Source of the DNA: a virus
DNA length: 16,920 nt
Direction: 5' to 3' (one strand)
Virus record (IMG/VR): IMGVR_UViG_3300034073_003048
Shown: piece by piece, positions 382 through 16,920 of the stretch
Numbering within the stretch: the first letter of the stretch is position 1
Layout: every line of letters starts with the position of its first letter
The notes under the pieces: model-generated
The model's database searches: none
Told to the model about the DNA's origin: nothing
Seen by the model: the letters and a program-made list of their open reading frames with translations, nothing else
Position numbers and translations under genes: made by a program

Positions 382-765
382 ATGGCCGTCTACAACACAT
401 CCGGATGCACGCTCTCCGTCGGCGGCACCGCTCTCGCCAACCTCATCGACGCCACGGTCGAGCTCTCCATCGAGACCATCGACGTGACCGAGATCGGCAA
501 CCTGGACCGCAAGTACATCGCGGGCATCCGCACGGGAACCATCTCGGGCAACATCTTCTACGACCAGAACAACGCGCAGATCGCCGCGCTAGAGGCAGCG
601 GTCAAGTCTGGATCGACCGTGGCATTCGTGTTTACCCTGCACAACGCCGCCACCTACACCGCAAACGCGATCATCACCAGCTTCTCGCCGAACATCGCGG
701 TCGCGGACGTGGTCCGCGCGTCGTTCTCCGCGCAGATCACGGGCGAGGTCACCATCAGTGCCTGA
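382..765 (+). CDS. Major tail (tube) protein, small TP901-1/phi13/GTA-like type (127 aa)
   Basis: The pattern ...IETIDVTEIGNLDRKYIAGIRTGTISGNIFYD...YTANAIITSF...ASFSAQITGEVTI is typical of short siphovirus tube proteins. It lies directly upstream of the chaperone and tape measure genes. Confidence 0.7.
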   Translation: MAVYNTSGCTLSVGGTALANLIDATVELSIETIDVTEIGNLDRKYIAGIRTGTISGNIFYDQNNAQIAALEAAVKSGSTVAFVFTLHNAATYTANAIITSFSPNIAVADVVRASFSAQITGEVTISA

Positions 766-1042
766 CATCCGCGCCATCCTGAGCCTGCAGCCCATCGAGG
801 CCGAGTGGTCCGGCTGCAGGTTCCGCATCTCGCGGCCGACGCTGGCGGATCTCGTCGAGGCGGTCGACGTGAACGCGAAGAGCCCCGAGAACGCGCGCGC
901 GTGGTGCCTGTACCGGCACTGCCAGGACACGGATGGAAAGCCGCTGTTCGCCGACGTGGCCGACGCCATGGCGGCGCCGGCGGGATTCGCTGCCAAGGTG
1001 GTCCCGCAGATCGAGGCGTTGTACAACGAAGGGGTGGACTAG
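758..1042 (+). CDS. Tail assembly chaperone (gpG-like), 94 aa
   Basis: The GTG start overlaps the upstream stop (GTGCCTGA). It occupies the canonical position between the tube protein and the tape measure. The call is mainly positional. Confidence 0.5.
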   Translation: MPDIRAILSLQPIEAEWSGCRFRISRPTLADLVEAVDVNAKSPENARAWCLYRHCQDTDGKPLFADVADAMAAPAGFAAKVVPQIEALYNEGVD

Positions 1043-1171
1043 GCCGGGACGCGCGCGCGCTGCTCGCGCGTGTCCTGAGGAACAGGCGTGCAGCACCATG
1101 GGAGCGCTCGGTACTTGAGCTCATCATCGAGCTCGACGTGCCGGACTACAAGGCGATCAGGAGAAGGCTCG

Positions 1172-1792
1172 ATGAACTCGGCAACACTGGAGTTTCGCCC
1201 AAACCCGCAGGACATCATCCGAATCCAAAACGCCCTGGGCCAATTCGAGGTCAAGGTGCAGGACCAGATCGCGCGGAAGGCGCTGCGGGCGTATGCCAAG
1301 GACGTGATACGGGCGGCACGCGCCCACACGCCGATCAGGAACGGCTACACCGTCACCAGTCTGGCCTCGAAAGTCAAGGCATGGCCTAACGGCATGGCAT
1401 GGGCCGCCATCAATTACAAGGGGCTCGGCCGGAAGCAGAGCAGCGCCACGGGCGCCGGCCGCCTGCGCAGGAAGCAGTACGACGCCGAGGGCGTGGGGTG
1501 GCGCACCCATTTCACCGAACTCGGTTTCCATTCCTGGCCGAAGACTCGAATCAACCTGAGGCGCGGAGTCGAGGGCGGTGGCGGCAAGGGGTGGAAGAAG
1601 GGCCAATACCACCGCGGCAGCGGCCAGTACCACCGCGGCACCATGGCCACCGTGATCGCGCAGACCGCGATGACGGGCAGGCTTATTCCCCACCTTCAGG
1701 CGGCGATCCGTGACGCGATGATCCAGGTCGAGAAGGGCAAGGGCGCGCAGCCACCGCAGAAGGCGCGCCGGATCTCGCTGGAGGCTGCATGA
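1172..1792 (+). CDS. HK97 gp10-family head-tail protein with a Gly/basic insertion (206 aa)
   Basis: ATG 1172 is preceded by AGGAG. The motifs ...KALRAYAKDVIRAARAHTPIRNGYTVTSL... and ...HFTELGF... resemble the gp10-family signature (kaa..v...ak..aP..tG.L..si, EfGT). The longer ORF starting at 1088 has poor GC3 in its upstream part. Confidence 0.5.
   Translation: MNSATLEFRPNPQDIIRIQNALGQFEVKVQDQIARKALRAYAKDVIRAARAHTPIRNGYTVTSLASKVKAWPNGMAWAAINYKGLGRKQSSATGAGRLRRKQYDAEGVGWRTHFTELGFHSWPKTRINLRRGVEGGGGKGWKKGQYHRGSGQYHRGTMATVIAQTAMTGRLIPHLQAAIRDAMIQVEKGKGAQPPQKARRISLEAA
1601..1642 (+). repeat. In-frame 21-bp tandem duplication (2 copies, 2 mismatches) encoding GQYHRGS/GQYHRGT
   Basis: ggccaataccaccgcggcagc (1601..1621) is followed directly by ggccagtaccaccgcggcacc (1622..1642). 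Confidence 0.9.
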
Positions 1793-2466
1793 AACTGCCG
1801 ACGATGAATGTTGACGTCAAGGTCAACACGAAGAACATGCAGCGCGATCTGGAGAACGCGAAGAAGCAGATGCGCGCCGTCGGCAAGCAGGGACTCGCGG
1901 CGGCCGGCGGAACTTTCGGCAAGCTCGGAGCCTTCTCGGGTGTCGGCGGCAGCCTGGGCGGACTCGCGCTCGGCGCGGGAGCCGGCGGACTCGCCATCGC
2001 GGCGCCGTTCATGATCGCGGGCAAGATCGTCGACAACTTCGCCACGACGATGAAGACCGCAGAGCAGACGCTGCAGGAATTCTCGACAAGCGGCAAGATC
2101 ACTACCGGGATGCTGTTGACGCAGGCGGCCGCATTGCTGCAGGCCCGCGAGGAAGGCGGAATGGGAAGGACCGGCGCAGGCTTCTTCGGCGGTTTCGGTC
2201 AGGGTTTCGCCGCAGGCGGCGCCGGTGGCCCCATGAATGAATCGGCCGAATGGCTGTCGAAGCAGGCGACATGGTTCGGCACGCTGCTCGGAGGCGCCAT
2301 CGGCGGCATCGGCGGCGGATCGGCCGAGGAGATCATCCGTCAGGCAGATCTCAGCATCGCGCAGTCGGAGGAAGAGGCGCGCGCGTTGTTCGAGCCGCAC
2401 GAACTGAAGCGGCTGGAGGCGATCATGGCGCAGTTCGCCAAGCAGCAGCGGGAGGCCACCACATGA
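1789..2466 (+). CDS. Tail tape measure protein, unusually short (225 aa)
   Basis: ATGA overlap with the upstream gene, and GGAGG upstream. It has helical ends plus central Gly/Ala-rich hydrophobic stretches (GGLALGAGAGGLAIAAPFMIAG, FFGGFGQGFAAGGAGG), and lies downstream of the chaperone. Confidence 0.65.
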   Translation: MKLPTMNVDVKVNTKNMQRDLENAKKQMRAVGKQGLAAAGGTFGKLGAFSGVGGSLGGLALGAGAGGLAIAAPFMIAGKIVDNFATTMKTAEQTLQEFSTSGKITTGMLLTQAAALLQAREEGGMGRTGAGFFGGFGQGFAAGGAGGPMNESAEWLSKQATWFGTLLGGAIGGIGGGSAEEIIRQADLSIAQSEEEARALFEPHELKRLEAIMAQFAKQQREATT

Positions 2467-3404
2467 TCGAATCAGACGATTACCGCGCATACCTCAGGGG
2501 CACGACCGCCAACCAGGGCGACATCTGGGACGTGCACACGATCACCGAGCGATGGCAGGTCGAGAAGACCGTGCTGAACGGCGCCGGCGTGGTCGAGGTC
2601 GGACCTCTTGAACCCCATTCGATCATCTACGACGCCACGCAGGGCGGCCCCGTCATCAAGAACATCGGCGAGCAGTACGGCGCGGGCACCGACTGGATGT
2701 CGGGCGCCCTGGTGCGTCGGCTGAGCTGGGGCCTGCCCGAGGGCAACAAGATTACCGTGGACGTGGAGTATTCAACGCGCTACTTCGAGAGCAAGTACGC
2801 GAAGGGCATGGGCCCGGCTGAGGAGTCGATTGAGAATGCCGTGGTGCTCGACCAAGGGCTCTTCCTGCCCTGCATGGTCATCCCGACCTTCCGCACGCGG
2901 TCGATGAAGATGTACCGCGACAACCCCGGGATGACCGGGCCGAACGCGACCAACAACCTAAGCACGTCCGACATCGGCGGCATCCAGAAGGTGCGCGACA
3001 TCGACGTGCGGCAGACGGCGCTCCGGCTGCGGTTCGTGGTCGACGTGAACAGCGGCGGAATCGACTACCTCACCGGCGTGCTGCAGGCGTACGTCGGGAA
3101 GAAGAACTCGGACGCCTTCCTAGGCTACGGCGCGCAGAACCTCATTTGCGACGGCGCCGCCATCAACCATCTGGAGCACGAATTCTACGAGGTGGTCATC
3201 GACTACCTGTACGACGAGTATTTCCATCATTCGCAGATCCTGCAGATGGACAACGACGGCAAGCCCCGCATGAACGGCGACGACTACGCCGACGTGCGCT
3301 GGGCCCGCGAGGAGCGCACGGCCGTGGCGTTCAACGACATCTGGCCGACGGGCGCGCTCGGCGAGAGCATGAAGTACCAGGCGTTCATGGGGGTCTGGTA
3401 CTGA
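2463..3404 (+). CDS. Hypothetical tail-tip/baseplate protein (313 aa; distal-tail position)
   Basis: ATGA overlap with the tape measure stop, GGGAGG upstream, high GC3. No motif recognised, so the function is positional only. Confidence 0.55.
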   Translation: MIESDDYRAYLRGTTANQGDIWDVHTITERWQVEKTVLNGAGVVEVGPLEPHSIIYDATQGGPVIKNIGEQYGAGTDWMSGALVRRLSWGLPEGNKITVDVEYSTRYFESKYAKGMGPAEESIENAVVLDQGLFLPCMVIPTFRTRSMKMYRDNPGMTGPNATNNLSTSDIGGIQKVRDIDVRQTALRLRFVVDVNSGGIDYLTGVLQAYVGKKNSDAFLGYGAQNLICDGAAINHLEHEFYEVVIDYLYDEYFHHSQILQMDNDGKPRMNGDDYADVRWAREERTAVAFNDIWPTGALGESMKYQAFMGVWY

Positions 3405-4039
3405 TGTACCGCAACCAGTACACCTTCCGCCGCGAGAAGGACCTCGACCGCGCCGCGCGGTTCCGCGAGGAGCCCGCCGGCATCGAGACCCAGCTCATGA
3501 AGGTGACGGAGGCGACCGCCCTGGCGTCGGGCGGTCCGTTCCGGTGGCTGTACACGCTCTACTTCGCCGAGATCGCCGGCAGCCCGAACTACCTGCCGCA
3601 GCTCAGGGCGAACACCTATCCGAACATCGGTTTCTCCGTGTCGGAACTGTCCAACACGGGCAGCTACTACAGCTACGGCGTGGCGAACGGCAACATCCCC
3701 GCCGGCTACCAACCGCGTCAGATCCCGCTGAATACGTACGTACTGGCGGTGCCCCACCGCGCGCAGACGGGAACGCTGTACTGGCTCATCGTCAACACGC
3801 AGGCCATCGACGGCACGTGCGAGGCGCCTCTTGTGGGCGACACGGACTACGGTACGCTTCTGATGCCGACGGCGCTCGATGACGAGTACGGCACCTTCGA
3901 CGCGCCCGAGGGCGACACGGACTACGGCACGATCAACCTCAGCGACTACGGCACGTTCGCCAACCCGACCAACGACGCCGACTACCAGACGATCACGAAC
4001 CCATACACCAATACGGTCGATTACGGAGCACTGGTCTAA
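3404..4039 (+). CDS. Minor tail protein with C-terminal (D/E)YG(T) repeats (211 aa)
   Basis: TGATG overlap at the start. The C-terminus reads GDTDYGTLL..DEYGTF..GDTDYGTIN..SDYGTF..DADYQTI..VDYGAL. Confidence 0.55.
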   Translation: MYRNQYTFRREKDLDRAARFREEPAGIETQLMKVTEATALASGGPFRWLYTLYFAEIAGSPNYLPQLRANTYPNIGFSVSELSNTGSYYSYGVANGNIPAGYQPRQIPLNTYVLAVPHRAQTGTLYWLIVNTQAIDGTCEAPLVGDTDYGTLLMPTALDDEYGTFDAPEGDTDYGTINLSDYGTFANPTNDADYQTITNPYTNTVDYGALV

Positions 4040-4962
4040 TGCCTCTCAAGCTACGCCGCGGAACCAACGCCGACAGGACGGGGATCACGCCCGCCGAGGG
4101 CGAGCCGATCTACACCACCGACACGAAGAAGCTCTACGTGGGCGACGGCACCACCGCCGGCGGCACCGAGATCGGCGGCGGCGGCACGCTCACCGTCGAC
4201 ACGCAGGACTTCACCGCGTCGGGCACCTGGACGAAGCCCGCGAACGCGCTGTGGGTCGAGGTGACCATGTGCGGGGCGGGTACCAATGGAGCGACGGGCT
4301 CGACTGGCGCAGGCGGTTCGGGAGGAAACGCCGGGCGGATCGCGCAGAAAACATTCCTGGCAAGCGCGCTCGGTTCCACGGTTTCCGTCACCTGCGGAGC
4401 ACCCGACGATCTCTACAGCCCTAGCAGCGGTTCCGTTTCCTCATTCGGCACGCATCTCTACGCAGCAGGCGGTGCCAACGGCATTGACCTGTATGGCGGC
4501 AGCACGCCTGAGTTTGTTTCCATTCAGGAGAACATGGGCGCTACTGGCGGTTTTGGGATGTTTGGCACTGGAGGAAATCCCGGACTTGCGGGACACCACG
4601 GAGCCCCAATGGGACCGGCAGCCGGCGGCGGTGGCGCGACATCTGGCGCTGGCGCCGCGGGTGGTTTGGCTGCAACGGGCAACGTGACTTCAGGCAACGC
4701 AATTGCATACGGCGGCGGCGGCGCGGGCGGCGCAAGTGGCACGACGGGTGTCGCGGGCACCGCGGGCGGATACGACACGATCACGGGCTTCGGCCACGGC
4801 GGCGGCGGCGGCGGGCAGGGCACCGCGGGCGCAGGCGGCGCCGGCGGCGCGGGCGTCCGTGGCGGCGGCGGTGGTGGCGGTGGCAAGGGCACGACCGCGG
4901 GCGGCGCCGGTGGCGCCGGCGGCGCGGGATTCGTGCGGGTTCGCACCCTTTGCTTCGGATGA
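4039..4962 (+). CDS. Tail fibre/receptor-binding protein: conserved fibre N-terminal motif plus a glycine-rich domain (307 aa)
   Basis: The N-terminus LKLRRGTNADRTGITPAEGEPIYTTDTKKLYVGDGTTAGG matches the widespread fibre/Mtd-N/HylP-type motif. It is followed by FTASGTWTKPANALWVEVTMCGAGTNG... and long GGxGGAGG tracts. Confidence 0.7.
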   Translation: MPLKLRRGTNADRTGITPAEGEPIYTTDTKKLYVGDGTTAGGTEIGGGGTLTVDTQDFTASGTWTKPANALWVEVTMCGAGTNGATGSTGAGGSGGNAGRIAQKTFLASALGSTVSVTCGAPDDLYSPSSGSVSSFGTHLYAAGGANGIDLYGGSTPEFVSIQENMGATGGFGMFGTGGNPGLAGHHGAPMGPAAGGGGATSGAGAAGGLAATGNVTSGNAIAYGGGGAGGASGTTGVAGTAGGYDTITGFGHGGGGGGQGTAGAGGAGGAGVRGGGGGGGGKGTTAGGAGGAGGAGFVRVRTLCFG

Positions 4963-5316: not shown

Positions 5317-5625
5317 ATGGCCAAAGAACCAACGCCTACAGGAGGAACAGTGGCACGCTCATCTCTCATCGGAAACGTCTCGGCACCCGTCAGTACGGGC
5401 AGCTTCGCGCAGGTCTCGGCGAATAACGTGGCCGGCGGCGGCACGCTCTACATGGCGGCGACGGCCAACGTTGTCATCCGTTTCTCCACGGATGGTGGAA
5501 CCACGTTCCAGGAGATGACCGTCCTGTCGGCGTGGGGGCCCATCGTCCTGGGCGACATCGATCCCCGTTACATCTACGTCCGCAGCGCCGGCACCGCGAC
5601 CACCGCGCACTTCTGGTACGCCTGA
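5317..5625 (+). CDS. Hypothetical protein (102 aa; alternative GTG start at 5350)
   Basis: ATG 5317 abuts the upstream TAA. However, an in-frame GTG at 5350 has a strong AGGAGG at 5340..5345, so the start is uncertain. Confidence 0.6.
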   Translation: MAKEPTPTGGTVARSSLIGNVSAPVSTGSFAQVSANNVAGGGTLYMAATANVVIRFSTDGGTTFQEMTVLSAWGPIVLGDIDPRYIYVRSAGTATTAHFWYA

Positions 5626-5626
5626 G

Positions 5627-5809
5627 ATGGATGTAGCAACGCTCGCCGGCGCCCTGGGCATCATCGCGTCCGTGGTCACGACCACGATGGTTGTCGTTGG
5701 CAAGCTGACGCGCGTCGAGGTCATGCTCGCCGAGCTGCGCGCGACGATGAACCACTACGACAAGAGGCTCGCCGACCTCGAAAGGAAGCACCATGAAAGG
5801 CAACCGTAA
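5627..5809 (+). CDS. Small membrane protein: N-terminal TM helix plus charged coiled-coil tail (60 aa); lysis-associated (i-spanin-like or holin-like) candidate
   Basis: VATLAGALGIIASVVTTTMVVVG is followed by KLTRVEVMLAELRATMNHYDKRLADLERKHHERQP. Confidence 0.5.
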   Translation: MDVATLAGALGIIASVVTTTMVVVGKLTRVEVMLAELRATMNHYDKRLADLERKHHERQP

Positions 5810-5960
5810 GACCACCCTCGCCGGCATCGCCGCCATCCTGACCGCCGCGGCGGGCATCCTGAACGGGTGGCCCGACGCCGTCGACTGGACCGCGGCCGTC
5901 TCGGCGATCATCGCCGGCGTCGGCCTGATCATGGCGCGGGACGCCCAGAAGGGTGATTGA
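5793..5960 (+). CDS. Two-TM small membrane protein, holin-like (55 aa; below the ORF-track cutoff)
   Basis: Read by hand: the ATG is preceded by GAAAGGAAG. Translation: MKGNRKTTLAGIAAILTAAAGILNGWPDAVDWTAAVSAIIAGVGLIMARDAQKGD. It overlaps the previous gene by 17 nt and has high GC3. Confidence 0.5.
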   Translation: MKGNRKTTLAGIAAILTAAAGILNGWPDAVDWTAAVSAIIAGVGLIMARDAQKGD

Positions 5961-6232
5961 ACGTGTACTCACGGAAATCGCGGTCGCCATCCTGCGGCAC
6001 TACGCGCGGCGCGAGCGCGCCGTCGACGCCGACACGGATGGCCGCCGCGCTCGCGCTGCCGCTGCTGTGCGCGAGTGGCTGCGGAGAAACGGTCCTGGTG
6101 AGGCGGGGGACGCCGGTCAGGATCGCTGAGCCCGTCCACGTCTACACGCTCGAAGGCGGCGAGTGGGTGCGCAGCGCGAACCGCGTCGACGTGCGCGGTT
6201 GGTACGCCGTGAGCCCCGAGGAAGTCGAGTGA
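5957..6232 (+). CDS. Putative secreted lipoprotein (o-spanin-like or exclusion-type); start at TTG 5957 or ATG 6038
   Basis: ...TRMAAALALPLLCASGCGE... has a hydrophobic core followed by an ASGC lipobox-like site. TTG 5957 forms a TTGA overlap with the upstream stop. GC3 is very high from 6038 onward. Confidence 0.5.
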   Translation: MNVYSRKSRSPSCGTTRGASAPSTPTRMAAALALPLLCASGCGETVLVRRGTPVRIAEPVHVYTLEGGEWVRSANRVDVRGWYAVSPEEVE

Positions 6233-6909
6233 GCACGTCGCGGTGCTGCTGCGGCGGCGGCGGCCTGCCGGCCTGCGGCGAGTGCCCGTGCAGCGCCAAC
6301 ATCTACAGCGTGCGTTGGTCGGGATCGTACGATCTCATCGACGCGAATCTCTGCCCCGCGTGCGGCAGCAGCAATGTCTTCCGCGCGCCCAACACCACGC
6401 ATTCCGATGGCGCCACGCGCGTGTTGTCCCCCATCGGCATTGGCACGTGCCGCGATGTCTACGCCGAGTATTCCAAGATCCATCCGCAGTACACGCCGCC
6501 TGCATTCTGCAGCGGTTCCTGCACTGGGCCGCAGAACAGTCAAACCAGATCCACCTACACACTGATCAAGCCAGATCAGTTCACTGGAACAAACAACGAC
6601 ATAAACCGATGCGAGTGGCAGGCGAGGTTGGTACTGGCGCAGACGCGTTCCGTCAATTGTTTGTTGACTCCGGTTATCAATGGGTTGTGGAGTCTGGTGG
6701 GACTTTTCCGAAAGGACTACGTGTCGTGCGCAGCTCCTGGCGCCCTGGTGTTCGAAAGGTTTGTGTGGATAACCACCGACGGCAATTTCCAGACGGTGGA
6801 ACTTGCATACAACCCCGGTGATCTGATCGTGCGAGCGGGATGCAACTTTGGCAATAGTGTCGCATACGCCAACATCTACGCCACCGCGGGAACGCTGGAG
6901 ATCCTGTGA
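6229..6909 (+). CDS. Cysteine-rich hypothetical protein (226 aa, 15 Cys), N-terminal CCCGGGG...CGECPC...CPAC cluster; compositionally atypical
   Basis: GTGA overlap at the start. The frame stays open although GC falls to about 47-60% per 60-nt line across 6540..6900, against a clearly higher background. Confidence 0.65.
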   Translation: MSTSRCCCGGGGLPACGECPCSANIYSVRWSGSYDLIDANLCPACGSSNVFRAPNTTHSDGATRVLSPIGIGTCRDVYAEYSKIHPQYTPPAFCSGSCTGPQNSQTRSTYTLIKPDQFTGTNNDINRCEWQARLVLAQTRSVNCLLTPVINGLWSLVGLFRKDYVSCAAPGALVFERFVWITTDGNFQTVELAYNPGDLIVRAGCNFGNSVAYANIYATAGTLEIL

Positions 6910-7154
6910 GCTGCCTGCGACTCGCCGACGGTTGGTGCACCGAGCCGCGCGCCATCGCGCACAGGATGCGCCCGTCACCGGGCGTGTGCAGCGTGTGCCC
7001 GCACTACGACGGCCCTGCGCGCGGGCTCGGGGACATCGTCCACACGGTCGCCAGGGCGACGGGCGTGGCGGCCGTGGTCGAGGCCGTGGCGCCCGACTGC
7101 GGGTGCCAGAAGCGCCGCGAGGCGCTCAACGAAAGATTTCCTAAAGCCCCTTGA
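6906..7154 (+). CDS. Small Cys-containing hypothetical protein (82 aa)
   Basis: GTGA overlap at the start. Motifs CSVCPHYDGPARGLGDIVH...DCGCQKRREALNERFP (a CxxC plus CxC pair). It is the last gene of the long rightward block. Confidence 0.55.
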   Translation: MSCLRLADGWCTEPRAIAHRMRPSPGVCSVCPHYDGPARGLGDIVHTVARATGVAAVVEAVAPDCGCQKRREALNERFPKAP

Positions 7155-7177
7155 CCGATTCGGTCGATGCTTATACC
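7151..7177 (+). promoter_or_regulatory. Candidate sigma70-like promoter (TTGACC, 15-nt spacer, TATACC) just upstream of the RHH gene
   Basis: -35 at 7151..7156 and -10 at 7172..7177. ATG 7187 lacks an SD, which fits a leaderless or near-leaderless mRNA. The spacer is short and the -10 is imperfect. Confidence 0.3.
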
Positions 7178-7186
7178 GTCCCCGCC

Positions 7187-7573
7187 ATGCAGAAGCGGAG
7201 AGCGGTCTCGGTCGATGAATCCACGTACTGGACGCTCGAGGCCATGCGGTTGGAGACGGGTAGATCCGTCCGGCAGATCGTCAAGGAGGCGGTCGCGGGC
7301 TACTCGGTAATGATGGACCTCGCGCAGACCGCGAGGCCACGAAAGGAAACGCGGACATGGGAATCTTTCTCGGCATCTGCGCCATCGCCATCGCGGCCGT
7401 GGCCACCGCCTGGCCCCTCTTCGATGATCGGGGGATCCGATGAGAAGTCACAGCTACACCGAGGACATGGAGCGGCAGGACAACCCGCAGCCGGGGATGG
7501 ATCGGCACCACCGCGAGTGGAACGCCGCCAACGGCGTACGCGAGCCCGCCGCGGACCTCAGCCGGATGGCTGA
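7187..7573 (+). CDS. Ribbon-helix-helix (CopG/Arc-type) transcriptional regulator with a long low-complexity tail (start at ATG 7187 or TTG 7151)
   Basis: KRRAVSVDESTYWTLEAMRLETGRSVRQIVKEAV shows the classic RHH strand-helix-helix pattern. GC3 drops after about 7335, but there is no in-frame stop until 7571..7573. Confidence 0.55.
   Translation: MQKRRAVSVDESTYWTLEAMRLETGRSVRQIVKEAVAGYSVMMDLAQTARPRKETRTWESFSASAPSPSRPWPPPGPSSMIGGSDEKSQLHRGHGAAGQPAAGDGSAPPRVERRQRRTRARRGPQPDG
7357..7443 (+). CDS. 28-aa hydrophobic mini-protein (MGIFLGICAIAIAAVATAWPLFDDRGIR)
   Basis: GAAAGGAAAC is 7 nt upstream. GC3 is 23/28. The stop forms an ATGA overlap with the next gene. It lies out of frame inside the RHH ORF. 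Confidence 0.4.
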   Translation: MGIFLGICAIAIAAVATAWPLFDDRGIR

Positions 7574-7718
7574 GGAGATCCGGGGCAAGCTCATCGACCG
7601 CGTCGGCGCCATCGGGCCCGGCGACCGCGCGTCGGCTCGGACGATGCTGGAGGCCGTGCAGGTCATCAAGGCGCTGCACGACGCCCTCGAGGCGGAACGG
7701 AGGCGCGATGCGCCATGA
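7440..7718 (+). CDS. Hypothetical early protein (92 aa)
   Basis: Very high GC3 throughout and an ATGA start overlap. No motif recognised. Confidence 0.75.
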   Translation: MRSHSYTEDMERQDNPQPGMDRHHREWNAANGVREPAADLSRMAEEIRGKLIDRVGAIGPGDRASARTMLEAVQVIKALHDALEAERRRDAP

Positions 7719-7887
7719 CATCGTGGCGCGACTGCGGAATTGTGATTGTATTCCGCATTGCCTATGCGCCGAAGCCGCCGACGAGATCGAACGGCTCCGC
7801 AAGGAACTTGCCGCACGTTGCGGCGACGGTGGGGCCGGTGCACATACCGCCGGCCCCACCGAACACTTCATCCCGGAGGCCCTGTGA
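7708..7887 (+). CDS. Small hypothetical protein (59 aa, below the ORF-track cutoff) with ARLR...EAADEIERLR motif
   Basis: Read by hand: GGAGG is 4 nt before ATG 7708. Translation: MRHDIVARLRNCDCIPHCLCAEAADEIERLRKELAARCGDGGAGAHTAGPTEHFIPEAL. The stop overlaps the next GTG (GTGA). Confidence 0.55.
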   Translation: MRHDIVARLRNCDCIPHCLCAEAADEIERLRKELAARCGDGGAGAHTAGPTEHFIPEAL

Positions 7888-10462: not shown

Positions 10463-10837
10463 ATGTCCGGGATGCAGAGACGGAAAGGCGCCGTCGGCGA
10501 GCGCGAGGTGGTCGCCGAGTTCGACCGCCACGGGATGCTCGCCCACCGCACAGCCCAGAGGATGGGCAAGGCAGGCGACGCAGCCGACGTGCAGGTGGCG
10601 GGGCTCGACGTGCACATCGAGGTCAAGCGCACCGAGAACCTCGCCTGGCGCAAGACCATCGCCCAGGCGACGAACGACGCCCAGGGTGGGCCATGGATCG
10701 TTCTCCACCGGGTGAACGGCGGCAAGTGGATGGTGATACAGCCCCTCGACCAATGGGTGGCCGACAGCGTGGCGGCACACTGCGCCATCGCCCATCGCAG
10801 GGAGCTTATGGAAAGGGCAGCTGGTGAGAGTCTTTAA
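10463..10837 (+). CDS. PD-(D/E)xK nuclease, Hjc-type Holliday-junction-resolvase-like (124 aa)
   Basis: GGGAGGG upstream. The pattern QRRKGAVGEREVVAEF...GDAADVQV...DVHIEVKRTE shows RKG..ER plus D..ExK. Confidence 0.55.
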   Translation: MSGMQRRKGAVGEREVVAEFDRHGMLAHRTAQRMGKAGDAADVQVAGLDVHIEVKRTENLAWRKTIAQATNDAQGGPWIVLHRVNGGKWMVIQPLDQWVADSVAAHCAIAHRRELMERAAGESL

Positions 10838-11102
10838 GCACACCATTCCCTCCATGGGCAAGGTGAAGCAGCCCCTACCGGAAGGCAAGCGGCTCACTGG
10901 GTGCAGGTGGACCATCCTGCGCAACAGGTTCATAAGGGCCAATCCCCTATGTGCCAAGTGTGGCAAGGTGGCCGAGCAGGTGCACCACGTCATCCCCCGA
11001 GCACAACGGCCCGACCTGACCTACGTGTGGGACAATCTCATGTCCATATGCACCGATTGCCACGTGAAAGAGCACAACGCGCACGAAAAACCGCGTTTTT
11101 GA
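10824..11102 (+). CDS. HNH endonuclease (terminase-associated)
   Basis: CAKCG...QVHHVIPRAQRPDLTYVWDNLMSICTDCHVKEH. It lies immediately upstream of the large terminase. GTG 10824 (GAAAGGG upstream) is preferred over ATG 10854. Confidence 0.8.
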   Translation: MRVFKHTIPSMGKVKQPLPEGKRLTGCRWTILRNRFIRANPLCAKCGKVAEQVHHVIPRAQRPDLTYVWDNLMSICTDCHVKEHNAHEKPRF

Positions 11103-11190
11103 GTCAAAAATGAGGTTTTTGCATGGGCATCAAAAAATCGGCAAAAAATGAGGGTGGGGGGGTAGGTTTTGGGCGGTCAGGGGCCCCTAA
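11081..11190. promoter_or_regulatory. Phased A5/T5 tracts plus a G-run: candidate packaging (cos/pac) or terminase recognition region
   Basis: A5 at 11086, T5 at 11096, A5 at 11106 and T5 at 11116 (exact 10-bp phase). A6 at 11132 and 11143. CAAAAA(A)TGAGG occurs twice. GGGTGGGGGGGTAGGTTTTGGGCGGTCAGGGG lies at 11152..11183. Confidence 0.35.
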
Positions 11191-12850
11191 GGTGCCGCCT
11201 GTAAACTCGGAAGCCAAAACACACGCGAAAACGGTCGTTCTTGAGTACAACCGTCGCGTACTGTCGGGATCTGCGCCGAACTCGAAATGGATCTTTGCCG
11301 CGGCGCAGCGTTTCGAGCGCGATCTCGCGCGATCCGACCTGCGGATGAACTGGGACAGGGTGGAGGAGATCGACCAGTTCGTGCGCACGCTGCCGCTGCT
11401 CGACGATTACGCCGGCGAGCCGTTCGTGCTGCACCCATGGCAGGTCTGGGTGACCGCCCAGCTGTTCGGATGGGAGTGGCAGGACGGCACCAGACGGATC
11501 AAGACGGCCATCCTGCAGGTGGCGAGAGGCAACGGCAAGACCACGCTTGCCGCCGCGCTGGCGCTCTGGGAGTTCCTGAGCGGCCCCGGTAGGCGTGTGC
11601 ACGTGATCGCCAACAAGGAACTGCAGGCGCTCATCTGCGTACAGAAGGCGCAAGAGATGCTGCGGGGGCGTGAAACCGACGGCGTGAAGGTGCTCCACAA
11701 CCGCATCGAGGATCGGAACCGCGACTGCCTCATGTCGGCGCTGAAGAAATCGGCCAGAAGCCTGGACGGTCTGACGCCGTCCATGTGGATCGGCGATGAG
11801 GTCGCCGAGTTCGCCGACCGGGACATCCTGGCGAAGCTGGAGACCACCGCGCACAAGCGCCGGAACAGTCTGGGGCTCATCATCTCGACGCCCGCCGCGG
11901 ACGCCGAGGGCTTGTTCAGCGAGAAGGTGGCCGCCGGGCAGCGGATTCTGAGCGGCGAGGAGGAGGACGATTCCACGATGCCACTGCTGTTCGGCATCGA
12001 CAAGGAAGACGATCTCGGCGACGAAGGCTGCTGGGCGAAGGCCAACCCCGCCATGGAGCATGGGCAGCCCAACATCCGCGACCTGAAGACGATGTGGAAC
12101 GCGAAGAAGGGCAGCGCCATCGGGCGCGCCGAGTTCTCGCGCTACATCTGCGCCAGGACGGGCGAGGAGACGGGCAACTGGCTCGACATGGCGCTCGCCT
12201 GGACGCCGACCGAGATCGACTGGGCGGCGCTGCGCGGCCGGCGGGCGTGGCTCGGGCTCGACCTGAGCAAGAACCTCGATCTGTCGGCGCTCGTCGTGGC
12301 CGTTCCCCTGGACGATGGGCGGGTGGCGCTCCGCGGCCACTACTGGTGGCCGTCCGAGGACGTGCGGCAAAGGGAACTGGACTACCGCCTGCCTGTCAGG
12401 AACTGGGCGGCCAAGGGGCACGTGGAGCTTACCGTCGGCCGCGAGATCGACTACACCCGGATCATGGCCACGCTGGAGGCCATCGCCGGCGAGTTCCAGG
12501 TCGCCAGCGTGGCGTACGACAAGTGGGGCGCCAAGATGTTCGCCGAGCAGGCGGTGTCCAAGGGCCTGCCGCTGGAAACCTACTCGCAGGGCATCGCCAC
12601 GATGGGCCCGGGGTGCCAGCTGTTCCAACAGCTCTGGGTGGGCCGCAAGTTCGTCGTGGGCGATGATCCGATCCTCCGCAACGCCTGCGCGGTCGCGGTC
12701 CCGATCCGCGACACGAACGGCAACATCAAGGTGAACAAGTCGAAGCGCACCCACATCATCGACCCGCTGGTGGCGGCCATCATGGCGGTGCACGCCTGGG
12801 GCGGCGAGACGGCGACATCGTGGGAGTTCCTGCGGGACGCCGATATCTGA
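11123..12850 (+). CDS. terL: Terminase large subunit (Terminase_1 type)
   Basis: PFVLHPWQVWVTAQLFGWEW..GTRRIKTAILQVARGNGKTTLAAALAL (Walker A) with a nuclease half following. The first ~25 codons are AT/G-run rich, so GTG 11192 is an alternative start. Confidence 0.9.
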   Translation: MGIKKSAKNEGGGVGFGRSGAPKVPPVNSEAKTHAKTVVLEYNRRVLSGSAPNSKWIFAAAQRFERDLARSDLRMNWDRVEEIDQFVRTLPLLDDYAGEPFVLHPWQVWVTAQLFGWEWQDGTRRIKTAILQVARGNGKTTLAAALALWEFLSGPGRRVHVIANKELQALICVQKAQEMLRGRETDGVKVLHNRIEDRNRDCLMSALKKSARSLDGLTPSMWIGDEVAEFADRDILAKLETTAHKRRNSLGLIISTPAADAEGLFSEKVAAGQRILSGEEEDDSTMPLLFGIDKEDDLGDEGCWAKANPAMEHGQPNIRDLKTMWNAKKGSAIGRAEFSRYICARTGEETGNWLDMALAWTPTEIDWAALRGRRAWLGLDLSKNLDLSALVVAVPLDDGRVALRGHYWWPSEDVRQRELDYRLPVRNWAAKGHVELTVGREIDYTRIMATLEAIAGEFQVASVAYDKWGAKMFAEQAVSKGLPLETYSQGIATMGPGCQLFQQLWVGRKFVVGDDPILRNACAVAVPIRDTNGNIKVNKSKRTHIIDPLVAAIMAVHAWGGETATSWEFLRDADI

Positions 12851-16766: not shown

Positions 16767-16920
16767 TGGCGTCCATCGAGTCCGCCATCCGCGCCATGCT
16801 GATCCGCTCGACGCTGCTGTCGGCATCCTCGCCCGTCGACGTGCCCGACGCCCGCGTCACGCACGGCTACCGCCTGCAGTCGAGCATCCTGCCCGCCGTG
16901 ACCTTCGAGGTGGCGTCGAC
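16766..16920 (+). CDS. Tail terminator/tail completion protein (DUF3168-like), N-terminal part; continues at 1..380 across the circular junction (135 codons in total)
   Basis: ATG 16766 overlaps the TAA of the upstream gene (TAATG), with GAGGAG 8 nt upstream. The frame runs MASIESAIRAMLIRSTLLS... straight into ORF 3..380. It sits between the head-closure and major tail genes. Confidence 0.55.
   Translation, partial: MASIESAIRAMLIRSTLLSASSPVDVPDARVTHGYRLQSSILPAVTFEVAS
16794..16920. repeat. Exact 127-bp terminal direct repeat, copy 2 (identical to 1..127)
   Basis: Same as copy 1. Unique length is therefore 16,793 bp. Confidence 0.97.

Follow-up and report, generated by a model that had tools for sequence, protein, structure and literature searches.

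Is a cysteine-rich gene of odd base composition, at the end of the late block of a tailed phage, freshly acquired cargo or a part of the phage itself? The question is raised by a gene in IMG/VR record IMGVR_UViG_3300034073_003048, a stretch of 16,920 nucleotides (nt) that we analysed whole and here call the window. A sequence-only reading had favoured moron-like cargo, recently acquired. Comparison with related genomes leads to a different answer: the gene is a constant part of the late module in a family of tailed phages of about 17 kb, and we hold with high confidence that, in evolutionary terms, it is a conserved, modular and exchanged cassette. Its function is a more tentative matter, for which we favour a role in host recognition. 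The gene and its likely start signal are as follows.

6218–6222, + strand: GAGGA, a Shine–Dalgarno-like motif 6 nt 5′ of the GTG start, read from the sequence
6229–6909, + strand: Cys-rich gene, 226 amino acids (aa), 15 Cys; GTG start within the upstream stop (GTGA), stop codon (6907–6909) within the next GTG

The open reading frame (ORF) is a real protein-coding gene under purifying selection. Its pairwise ratio of nonsynonymous to synonymous divergence (dN/dS) is 0.12–0.28, and +1 is the only frame that stays open across all relatives. Translation upheld what had been described of the product: 226 residues, 15 of them Cys, and the N terminus CCCGGGGLPACGECPC followed by CPAC, which occupies residues 42–45. 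Cysteines (residues 6, 7, 8, 16, 19, 21, 42, 45, 74, 94, 98, 128, 144, 167 and 205) make up 6.6% of the protein against 0.95% of the other 26 predicted proteins (binomial P = 7e-9). Because start and stop codons overlap on both sides, translation of the gene is coupled to that of its neighbours. Two competing ORFs were rejected: a 278-aa antisense ORF (6142–6978, − strand) is interrupted in most relatives, has non-coding-like GC content by codon position and is a by-product of high GC, and a 192-aa ORF in an alternative + frame is not open in relatives. No Rfam family matched in the region of the gene, and a consensus scan of 5500–7800, confined to sigma-70-type signals, found no promoter or terminator except for a weak terminator-like site at 7721.

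The slot that the gene fills is never empty: all related contigs that cover the position (L001, L002, L006, L009, L012, L013, L015–L019, L020/21, L023/24, L025 and the P0012 contig) carry a homologue there. The order within the slot is constant, with a lipoprotein gene, the Cys-rich gene and an 82-aa Cys-rich gene that are translationally coupled. The initial relatives, which form six clusters, are 68–76% identical with all 15 Cys invariant, and the same 15 are invariant in 25 type-A alleles. In more distant genomes, reached through the broader family of the 82-aa protein (50 clusters), the slot encodes proteins with 17 Cys in 227 aa, 12 Cys in 201 aa and 39 Cys in 339 aa. They share only the N-terminal motif [MV]-S-x-H-[RQ]-x-CCC...C-x-C...Y-x3-W-x-G, a motif seen in L019, L020, L025 and L126. 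The fibre gene with an Mtd_N domain is absent from L020, L021 and L025 and the Cys-rich gene is kept there, reaching its largest size in L025 (339 aa). With the slot filled in every covering relative, there is no presence/absence polymorphism of the kind that optional cargo implies. Conservation in all relatives as a tail or structural protein had been named as an outcome that would speak against cargo; the conservation is what we find, and an identity as a tail or structural protein is not shown by it.

The compositional anomaly itself is real. GC content per 60 nt, counted from 6229, runs 0.82, 0.57, 0.67, 0.70, 0.58, 0.50, 0.57, 0.47, 0.60, 0.52, 0.58 and 0.68; 6540–6900 averages 0.540 against a genome mean of 0.665 (s.d. 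0.035 in 360-nt windows; z = −3.55) and is the lowest-GC stretch in the genome. Codon usage falls with it: GC at third codon positions (GC3) in the C-terminal 122 codons is 0.672, whereas 0.900 is expected from the codon usage of the genome for the same amino acids (z = −8.6). The computed profile therefore confirms both the dip and the A/T-ending codons that had been picked out by eye. Amino-acid composition was considered as the main cause and rejected, because on its own it would lower the GC of the C-terminal part merely to 0.632, whereas 0.541 is observed; the dip comes mainly from synonymous sites. The first 104 codons have normal composition, as does the N-terminal Cys module within them (GC 0.663, GC3 0.85). 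Hypervariable codons were likewise rejected as the source: conserved and variable codons have the same GC3 (0.66 and 0.68), so the low GC3 is regional and not a by-product of variable sites.

The trough recurs in 10 of 10 closer relatives, including alleles that are only about 30% identical, and fades in the most distant ones; it is common to type-A alleles, type-B alleles and L012. Synonymous divergence (dS) between alleles in the C-terminal part of the gene is 1.6–2.2, which is saturated. Because the trough persists despite this saturation, low GC3 is a long-standing trait of the cassette and not that of a fresh import whose composition has yet to ameliorate. Recent acquisition is thus contradicted by the dip that diverged alleles share, as well as by the low dN/dS and by the invariance of the 15 Cys in type A. 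The only other region below the genome mean by more than 2 s.d. of GC is 10750–11400, a second trough (0.54–0.58) that takes in an HNH gene, a short gap and the start of the large terminase gene (TerL); GC3 of the HNH gene is 0.76 (z = −4.1).

What the gene does undergo is exchange. Between phages whose backbones are 85–99% identical, the Cys-rich protein is 70–75% or merely about 31% identical. When the window is compared with L013, the neighbouring proteins are 83–94% identical and the Cys-rich protein 32%; when L019 is compared with L018, six tail-module proteins are 93–99% identical and the slot 42%, a value obtained with the called 266-aa ORF, which also covers the 3′ part of the lipoprotein gene. 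The borders are sharp. Nucleotide identity drops from 0.9–1.0 to 0.3–0.5, the level expected by chance, no more than about 60 nt from the start codon, right behind the Cys motif, and is restored 30–100 nt inside the 82-aa gene, the first 20–25 codons of which diverge along with the cassette, with breakpoints inside its 5′ end. Relative to type-A relatives, dS is 0.86–1.22 in the Cys-rich gene and 0.16–0.52 in the two flanking genes, a 3–6-fold difference.

Exchange also operates on a larger scale. The capsid protein of L017 (IMGVR_UViG_3300042914_001976) is only 30% identical to that of the window and its tail tube 27%, whereas the Cys-rich protein is 69%, the fibre 67% and the protein with two transmembrane segments (2-TM) 92% identical, and the block from the fibre gene to the 82-aa gene is 50–92% identical throughout. 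Because L017 keeps this module on diverged capsid and tail-tube proteins, the whole distal late module moves from one head and tail backbone to another. Elevated divergence together with depressed GC3 is seen also in the fibre gene, in the adjoining 102-aa gene and, more weakly, in two tail genes. These comparisons of alleles indicate that the Cys-rich gene is an allelic cassette, with replacement of alleles at a fixed locus rather than gain of a new gene. The earlier proposal of horizontal acquisition therefore stands in part: the sharp borders and high dS support exchange itself, and the fixed locus speaks against the arrival of a gene that was not there before.

The protein has two parts, and its variation is confined to patches in the second.

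6244–6363, + strand: N-terminal Cys module, residues 6–45; CCC-x7-C-x2-C-x-C ... Y26-x3-W30-x-G32 ... C42-x2-C45
6523–6906, + strand: variable low-GC body, residues 99–226; GC3 0.67 against 0.90; predicted to be all beta
6523–6555, + strand: hypervariable patch 1, residues 99–109, from type-A alignment entropy
6625–6699, + strand: hypervariable patch 2, residues 133–157, with single columns of 2.0–2.3 bits
6769–6807, + strand: hypervariable patch 3, residues 181–193, from type-A alignment entropy
6826–6861, + strand: hypervariable patch 4, residues 200–211, with entropy up to 2.5 bits

Entropy was calculated per column from the alignment of the 25 type-A alleles; its mean is 0.32 over residues 1–98, which are almost fixed, and 0.62 over residues 99–226. 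Strictly conserved segments (YTLLKPDQFTG, NRCEWQA, LFRKDFVSCAAPG and AYANIFATAG) part the patches. Among 12 divergent members of the family, S2, C6, C7, C8, C19, C21, Y26, W30, G32 and C42 are invariant in the N-terminal region and P115, W130, C167 and G221 beyond it, C98, K114, C128, P170 and G171 are nearly invariant, and no Asp, Glu or His is invariant. The strictly conserved cysteines are thus C6, C7, C8, C19, C21, C42 and C167; C16 and C45 are nearly invariant across distant alleles. The zinc-ribbon-like pair of CxxC motifs that had been pointed out (C16-x2-C19 and C42-x2-C45) is present in type A, but a zinc ribbon is no more than a candidate: C16 and C45 are not invariant in distant alleles and the searches gave no significant model, the one match of a family member to zinc-ribbon models being weak (E = 0.062).

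The module of about 45 aa is the sole part kept in all allele types and in L126 (IMGVR_UViG_3300007363_000200), an otherwise unrelated 16-kb phage that a pattern scan of IMG/VR picked out. There it sits on a 266-aa protein with 21 Cys (gene at 1595–2395), which aligns with the family over 38 columns, family residues 5–45 (hhalign E = 4.6e-5). Because L126 shares the module alone, the protein is modular, with a conserved Cys module of about 45 aa and a replaceable body. The gene in L126 lies among soluble beta-rich ORFans, with no small membrane-protein or lipoprotein-like ORF seen upstream; downstream follow a gene for a small Cys-rich protein (phrog_13558), a 473-aa ORFan and then Erf-like and Gam-like genes. 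Compared with the 102-aa and LtfC-like proteins of the window, the small proteins that L126 encodes show no similarity.

Nothing known resembles this protein. Neither Pfam nor PHROGs gave a family for it at E ≤ 0.1, or for the 12 divergent members at E ≤ 1; NCBIfam, PADLOC and PDB profile searches with the protein and those members returned no match, and tblastn of the protein gave no hit in 50,697 phage records. When 1.84 billion cluster representatives were searched exhaustively by profile, only four further clusters were added, and a word-indexed profile search found 11 proteins; no relative outside these phages was detectable among the 1.84 billion. Profile comparison revealed no relation of the family to the fibre, to a 313-aa tail protein or to a neighbour of the homologue in L022, a phage described below. 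These searches, with an AlphaFold2 and Foldseek check that gave no fold match, bear out the earlier failure to place the protein in a family. In that sense of sequence and predicted fold the family is new, and its N-terminal CCC module is unusual.

The genes around the cassette bear on what it might do.

4039–4962, + strand: fibre gene with Mtd_N domain (Pfam PF18454, E = 4.9e-13), in the variable late module with the Cys-rich gene
5627–5809, + strand: gene for a 60-aa protein with one transmembrane segment and a charged helix
5793–5960, + strand: gene for a 55-aa holin-like protein with two transmembrane segments
5953–6129, + strand: conserved 58-aa ORF, Rz/Rz1-like, overlapping, in a different frame, the beginning of the lipoprotein gene
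6038–6232, + strand: lipoprotein gene, with a hydrophobic region and an A-[ST]-G-C lipobox in all relatives; its stop codon shares bases with the GTG of the Cys-rich gene
6906–7154, + strand: 82-aa Cys-rich gene, 6 Cys, translationally coupled; C-x2-C-P-x-Y-x-G-P-x-RGLGD ... CGC-x-KRR-x-ALN
7151–7573: ribbon–helix–helix (RHH)-like ORF, conserved core about 7188–7330; weak match to Pfam RHH_1 (E = 0.022)

In relatives the ORF that overlaps the lipoprotein gene is 55–58 aa long, and gene callers choose either frame. The overlap recalls Rz/Rz1 spanins and, by that analogy, suggests a Gram-negative host and a lysis cassette. The likeness to spanins is limited: the hydrophobic N terminus of the 58-aa product is short, and both proteins are unusually small. 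No endolysin or other muralytic domain was found in the genome by Pfam, PHROGs and NCBIfam searches of the predicted proteins or by PDB sequence search with four ORFans; either some ORFan is a new lysin or lysis works differently in this phage.

Downstream, the 82-aa protein belongs to a wider ORFan family with the invariant pattern RG-x-GD ... C-x2-RR-x2-LN in its 50 clusters. Its AlphaFold2 model (predicted local distance difference test (pLDDT) 71.5) had no fold match. In L022, which has 51% GC, the homologue (3468–3716) lies beside a collagen-like fibre gene (a weak match to Pfam Collagen), and the protein next to that fibre gene has a candidate LamG-like N terminus, judged by eye. The RHH-like ORF lies in what looks like an intergenic stretch of 285 nt behind the 82-aa gene; relatives conserve about 60 residues at its N terminus, gene callers leave it uncalled in every related contig, and it probably encodes the regulator at the point where late genes give way to early ones. 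Upstream, the fibre gene has depressed GC3 (z = −6.1) and elevated divergence, and its C-terminal part (4651–4950) is Gly-rich with a GC of 0.79. A diversity-generating retroelement was considered owing to the Mtd_N domain of the fibre and rejected: domain and repeat scans of the window found no reverse transcriptase and no template-like repeat, so the fibre is not the target of such an element here.

Why, then, would a phage keep a slot fixed and exchange what fills it? The fixed slot, the conserved adaptor with its swappable body, the patchy hypervariability on a beta scaffold, the cassette exchange and the linkage to the fibre together point to a host-interaction protein under pressure to change. 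We hypothesize, somewhat short of an even chance, that the protein is a virion-associated host-recognition component of the receptor-binding or adhesin type, anchored by its Cys module. Through the module, which could be a metal cluster or a disulfide knot between subunits, the protein would dock to a conserved partner, possibly a tail component or the 82-aa protein; the four variable patches would make up the face that meets a host structure which itself varies; swapping of alleles would change specificity; and the atypical composition may be that of a cassette that circulates in a wider, lower-GC phage gene pool. The sequence-only reading had left the choice between a host-interaction, lysis or exclusion role; host interaction stays the most plausible, given the exchange and the patches, and lysis only a lesser rival. 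A bolder version is possible, if on balance unlikely: the CCC...CxC...Y-x3-W-x-G module could be an undescribed metal or disulfide plug-in adaptor for interchangeable, disulfide-rich binding heads of a new fold, swapped across unrelated backbones with an 82-aa partner that co-varies at its N terminus, and so represent a new class of receptor-binding cassette.

Several observations weigh against a host-recognition role in the virion. The protein has no signal peptide and no transmembrane segment, and no sequence relation was found to known families of receptor-binding proteins, fibres or adhesins. Its AlphaFold2 model (built from 11 sequences) is all beta with 13 strands, but of low confidence (pLDDT 61.6, predicted template modelling score 0.57), with residues 1–22 and 42–51 below a pLDDT of 50, and Foldseek found no match to it in PDB or BFVD (TM-score ≤ 0.28). 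The location in the virion is a putative one. The gene follows the holin-like and lipoprotein genes and not directly the fibre gene, from which it is six genes downstream (counting the overlapping 58-aa ORF), an order that does not suggest binding at the fibre tip. Recognised structural proteins contain 0–1% Cys, and Cys-rich phage proteins are more often intracellular and Zn-binding. Allele type does not co-vary with the lipoprotein, and between L019 and L018 the fibre is 82% identical while the slot falls to about 42%. Nor is positive selection demonstrated, because even in the variable half the mean dN/dS stays under 0.3.

Some of these points turn directly into the strongest rival, which we consider rather unlikely: an intracellular metal-binding accessory protein for host take-over, anti-defence or regulation, whose N-terminal Cys cluster would bind Zn or Fe–S in the cytoplasm and whose variable body would follow changes in its target in the host, for instance a defence sensor, with the 82-aa protein and the RHH gene as parts of the same non-structural block. 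The missing signal peptide suits such a protein, as does a Cys density like that of other putative Zn proteins (5.4% in HNH, 7.3% in the 82-aa protein), set against the low values of structural proteins. The gene lies at the border with the regulatory and early region, before the 82-aa Cys protein and the conserved RHH ORF; hypervariable patches and cassette exchange would also suit an arms race with a target inside the cell, and atypical composition is common among accessory genes. However, typical accessory and anti-defence genes are not always present, whereas this one is; it is co-oriented and translationally coupled with the end of the late block and travels with the fibre module across backbones. 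The number and spacing of Cys outside the N-terminal module vary (12–39 Cys in all), more in the manner of variable disulfides than of fixed metal sites, and PADLOC, Pfam and PHROGs gave no match.

Host recognition must also be set against a lysis role, which we judge improbable. The protein would then be the missing endolysin, or some other, novel lysis effector whose expression goes with that of the holin-like and spanin-like genes upstream. An endolysin is recognisable nowhere in the 16.8-kb genome (by the same Pfam, PHROGs, NCBIfam and PDB sequence searches), and the gene directly follows, and is coupled to, a lysis-like cluster that comprises the gene with one transmembrane segment, the 2-TM holin-like gene and the overlap of small ORF and lipoprotein gene. 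Yet the conserved residues are Cys, Trp, Tyr, Gly and Pro, with no invariant Asp, Glu or His, though a Cys might be catalytic, and alleles 30% identical in near-identical genomes, with patchy hypervariability, would be surprising in an enzyme whose substrate, peptidoglycan, does not vary. The all-beta model matched no muralytic fold, Pfam, PHROGs, NCBIfam and PDB profiles gave no muralytic domain, and the L126 homologue is not beside membrane-protein or lipoprotein genes. A new class of non-canonical endolysin is less likely than the plug-in adaptor outlined above.

Recent moron-like cargo with composition not yet ameliorated, the interpretation from which we started, is now very improbable. 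It would account for the dip in GC and GC3, which is the lowest in the genome, the position at the end of the late block and the absence of a family match; against it stand the slot filled in all covering relatives, including a distant backbone, a dip shared by type-A, type-B and L012 alleles that differ at saturated synonymous sites, translational coupling on both sides, and a sigma-70-type scan that found no promoter or terminator of its own. Hardly credible at all is a cis element in the low-GC stretch (an origin, a packaging site or an RNA) or a second overlapping gene that distorts codon usage: AT-rich islands within genes sometimes mark origins and the region is just upstream of the early and replication genes, but synonymous sites are most diverged here (dS 1.6–2.2), so that conservation of the DNA does not go further than that of the protein, conserved and variable codons are alike in their low GC3, alternative frames are not conserved, the region has no Rfam match and, in the sigma-70-type scan, no promoter or terminator, and the stretch has no repeat family among the 20 largest direct families and 25 longest inverted pairs of the window.

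A hypervariable, recombining host-interaction cassette is a kind of behaviour already known in phages. T2-type gp38 adhesins (S16, PP01 and T2) combine a conserved attachment part with hypervariable loops, and their alleles set specificity (PMC12892980). The Cys-rich protein is similar in size (gp38 has 200–260 aa) and in its hypervariable segments between strictly conserved ones, and gp38 appears to be its closest functional analogue, with the virion location inferred here. It has no sequence or fold relation to gp38, however; its conserved flanks are not Gly-rich polyglycine II (PGII) motifs, its beta-strand model has no PGII match, its gene is not directly downstream of the fibre gene, and its N-terminal Cys cluster has no counterpart in gp38. 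A second comparison is with the tail-tip proteins gpL of lambda and gp13 of RcGTA, in which Cys residues coordinate a [4Fe-4S] cluster (PMC10721106). These also place a Cys cluster in a small tail protein, in a siphovirus or a particle like a gene transfer agent (GTA), and the tail module of the present phage is short and GTA-like. In gpL, however, the cysteines are four, in a C-terminal domain, and the gene is among tail-tip genes, whereas the Cys-rich protein has 6–8 N-terminal Cys and its gene comes after lysis-like genes; Pfam gave no match to Phage_tail_L. The protein belongs to neither the gp38 nor the gpL family, the defining sequence features of which we tested for and did not find.

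Pairs of genes for a receptor-binding protein and a superinfection-exclusion lipoprotein are known from T5 (pb5/Llp) and from Rtp-like small siphophages (PMC9586334, PMC12685063). Here, too, a small lipoprotein gene is directly beside a candidate binding protein, but the alleles of lipoprotein and cassette do not co-vary, and the lipoprotein gene overlaps a small ORF out of frame, which is a better fit to an o-spanin. With Mtd of Bordetella phage BPP-1 and with modular receptor-binding proteins the Cys-rich protein shares a conserved N-terminal anchor and a variable binding domain, and the neighbouring fibre itself bears an Mtd_N domain. Mtd varies through a diversity-generating retroelement, whereas the Cys-rich protein owes its variation to exchanged alleles and to point substitutions, and its model does not match a C-type lectin fold. 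Morons such as bor and lom of lambda are present in one relative and absent from another and usually have their own promoter and terminator. The gene resembles them in atypical base composition and position at the end of a late operon, but it is always present and translationally coupled, and the sigma-70-type scan found no such promoter or terminator signals.

The phage that carries the cassette is compact. Positions 1–127 of the window are 100% identical to 16794–16920, and a 30,094-bp metagenome contig from the Joint Genome Institute is a head-to-tail concatemer of the same genome with a period of exactly 16,793 bp; because the ends match and this 30-kb contig repeats the genes at that period, the window is one complete circular or circularly permuted tailed-phage genome of 16,793 bp. 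Many relatives assemble at 16.5–17.5 kb. The genome has 66.5% GC, and all of its clear genes are on the + strand. They comprise packaging and head genes (HNH, large terminase, portal, S78 protease and HK97-type capsid protein), connector and tail genes (adaptors, tail tube, a very short tail module and the fibre gene) and, after the fibre and the small genes that follow it, an AAA_25 helicase-like gene and a RusA-like gene. The tail module (382–4039) is extremely short and contains no long tape-measure gene; the gene at the tape-measure position codes for about 206 aa. Its architecture resembles that of a gene transfer agent, although this genome does carry helicase-like, RusA-like and HNH genes of its own. 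The lineage is uncultured: the best match of the terminase among 50,697 deposited phages is only 29% identical, and a search of 185,579 species-representative genomes, with either the family profile or the capsid protein as query, turned up no prophage copy.

A strong trough in GC and codon usage therefore need not signal recent acquisition, and in these phages it marks a long-lived pool of recombining alleles. The family that it marks has no detectable relatives outside these phages and no fold match, in a genome that also has no recognisable endolysin. If our inference of function is true, the locus would be a compact specificity cassette, with sharp recombination borders, a conserved adaptor of 45 aa and four variable patches, in genomes that at about 16.8 kb are among the smallest complete ones known for tailed phages, and would offer a convenient natural system for the study and engineering of host-range switching.

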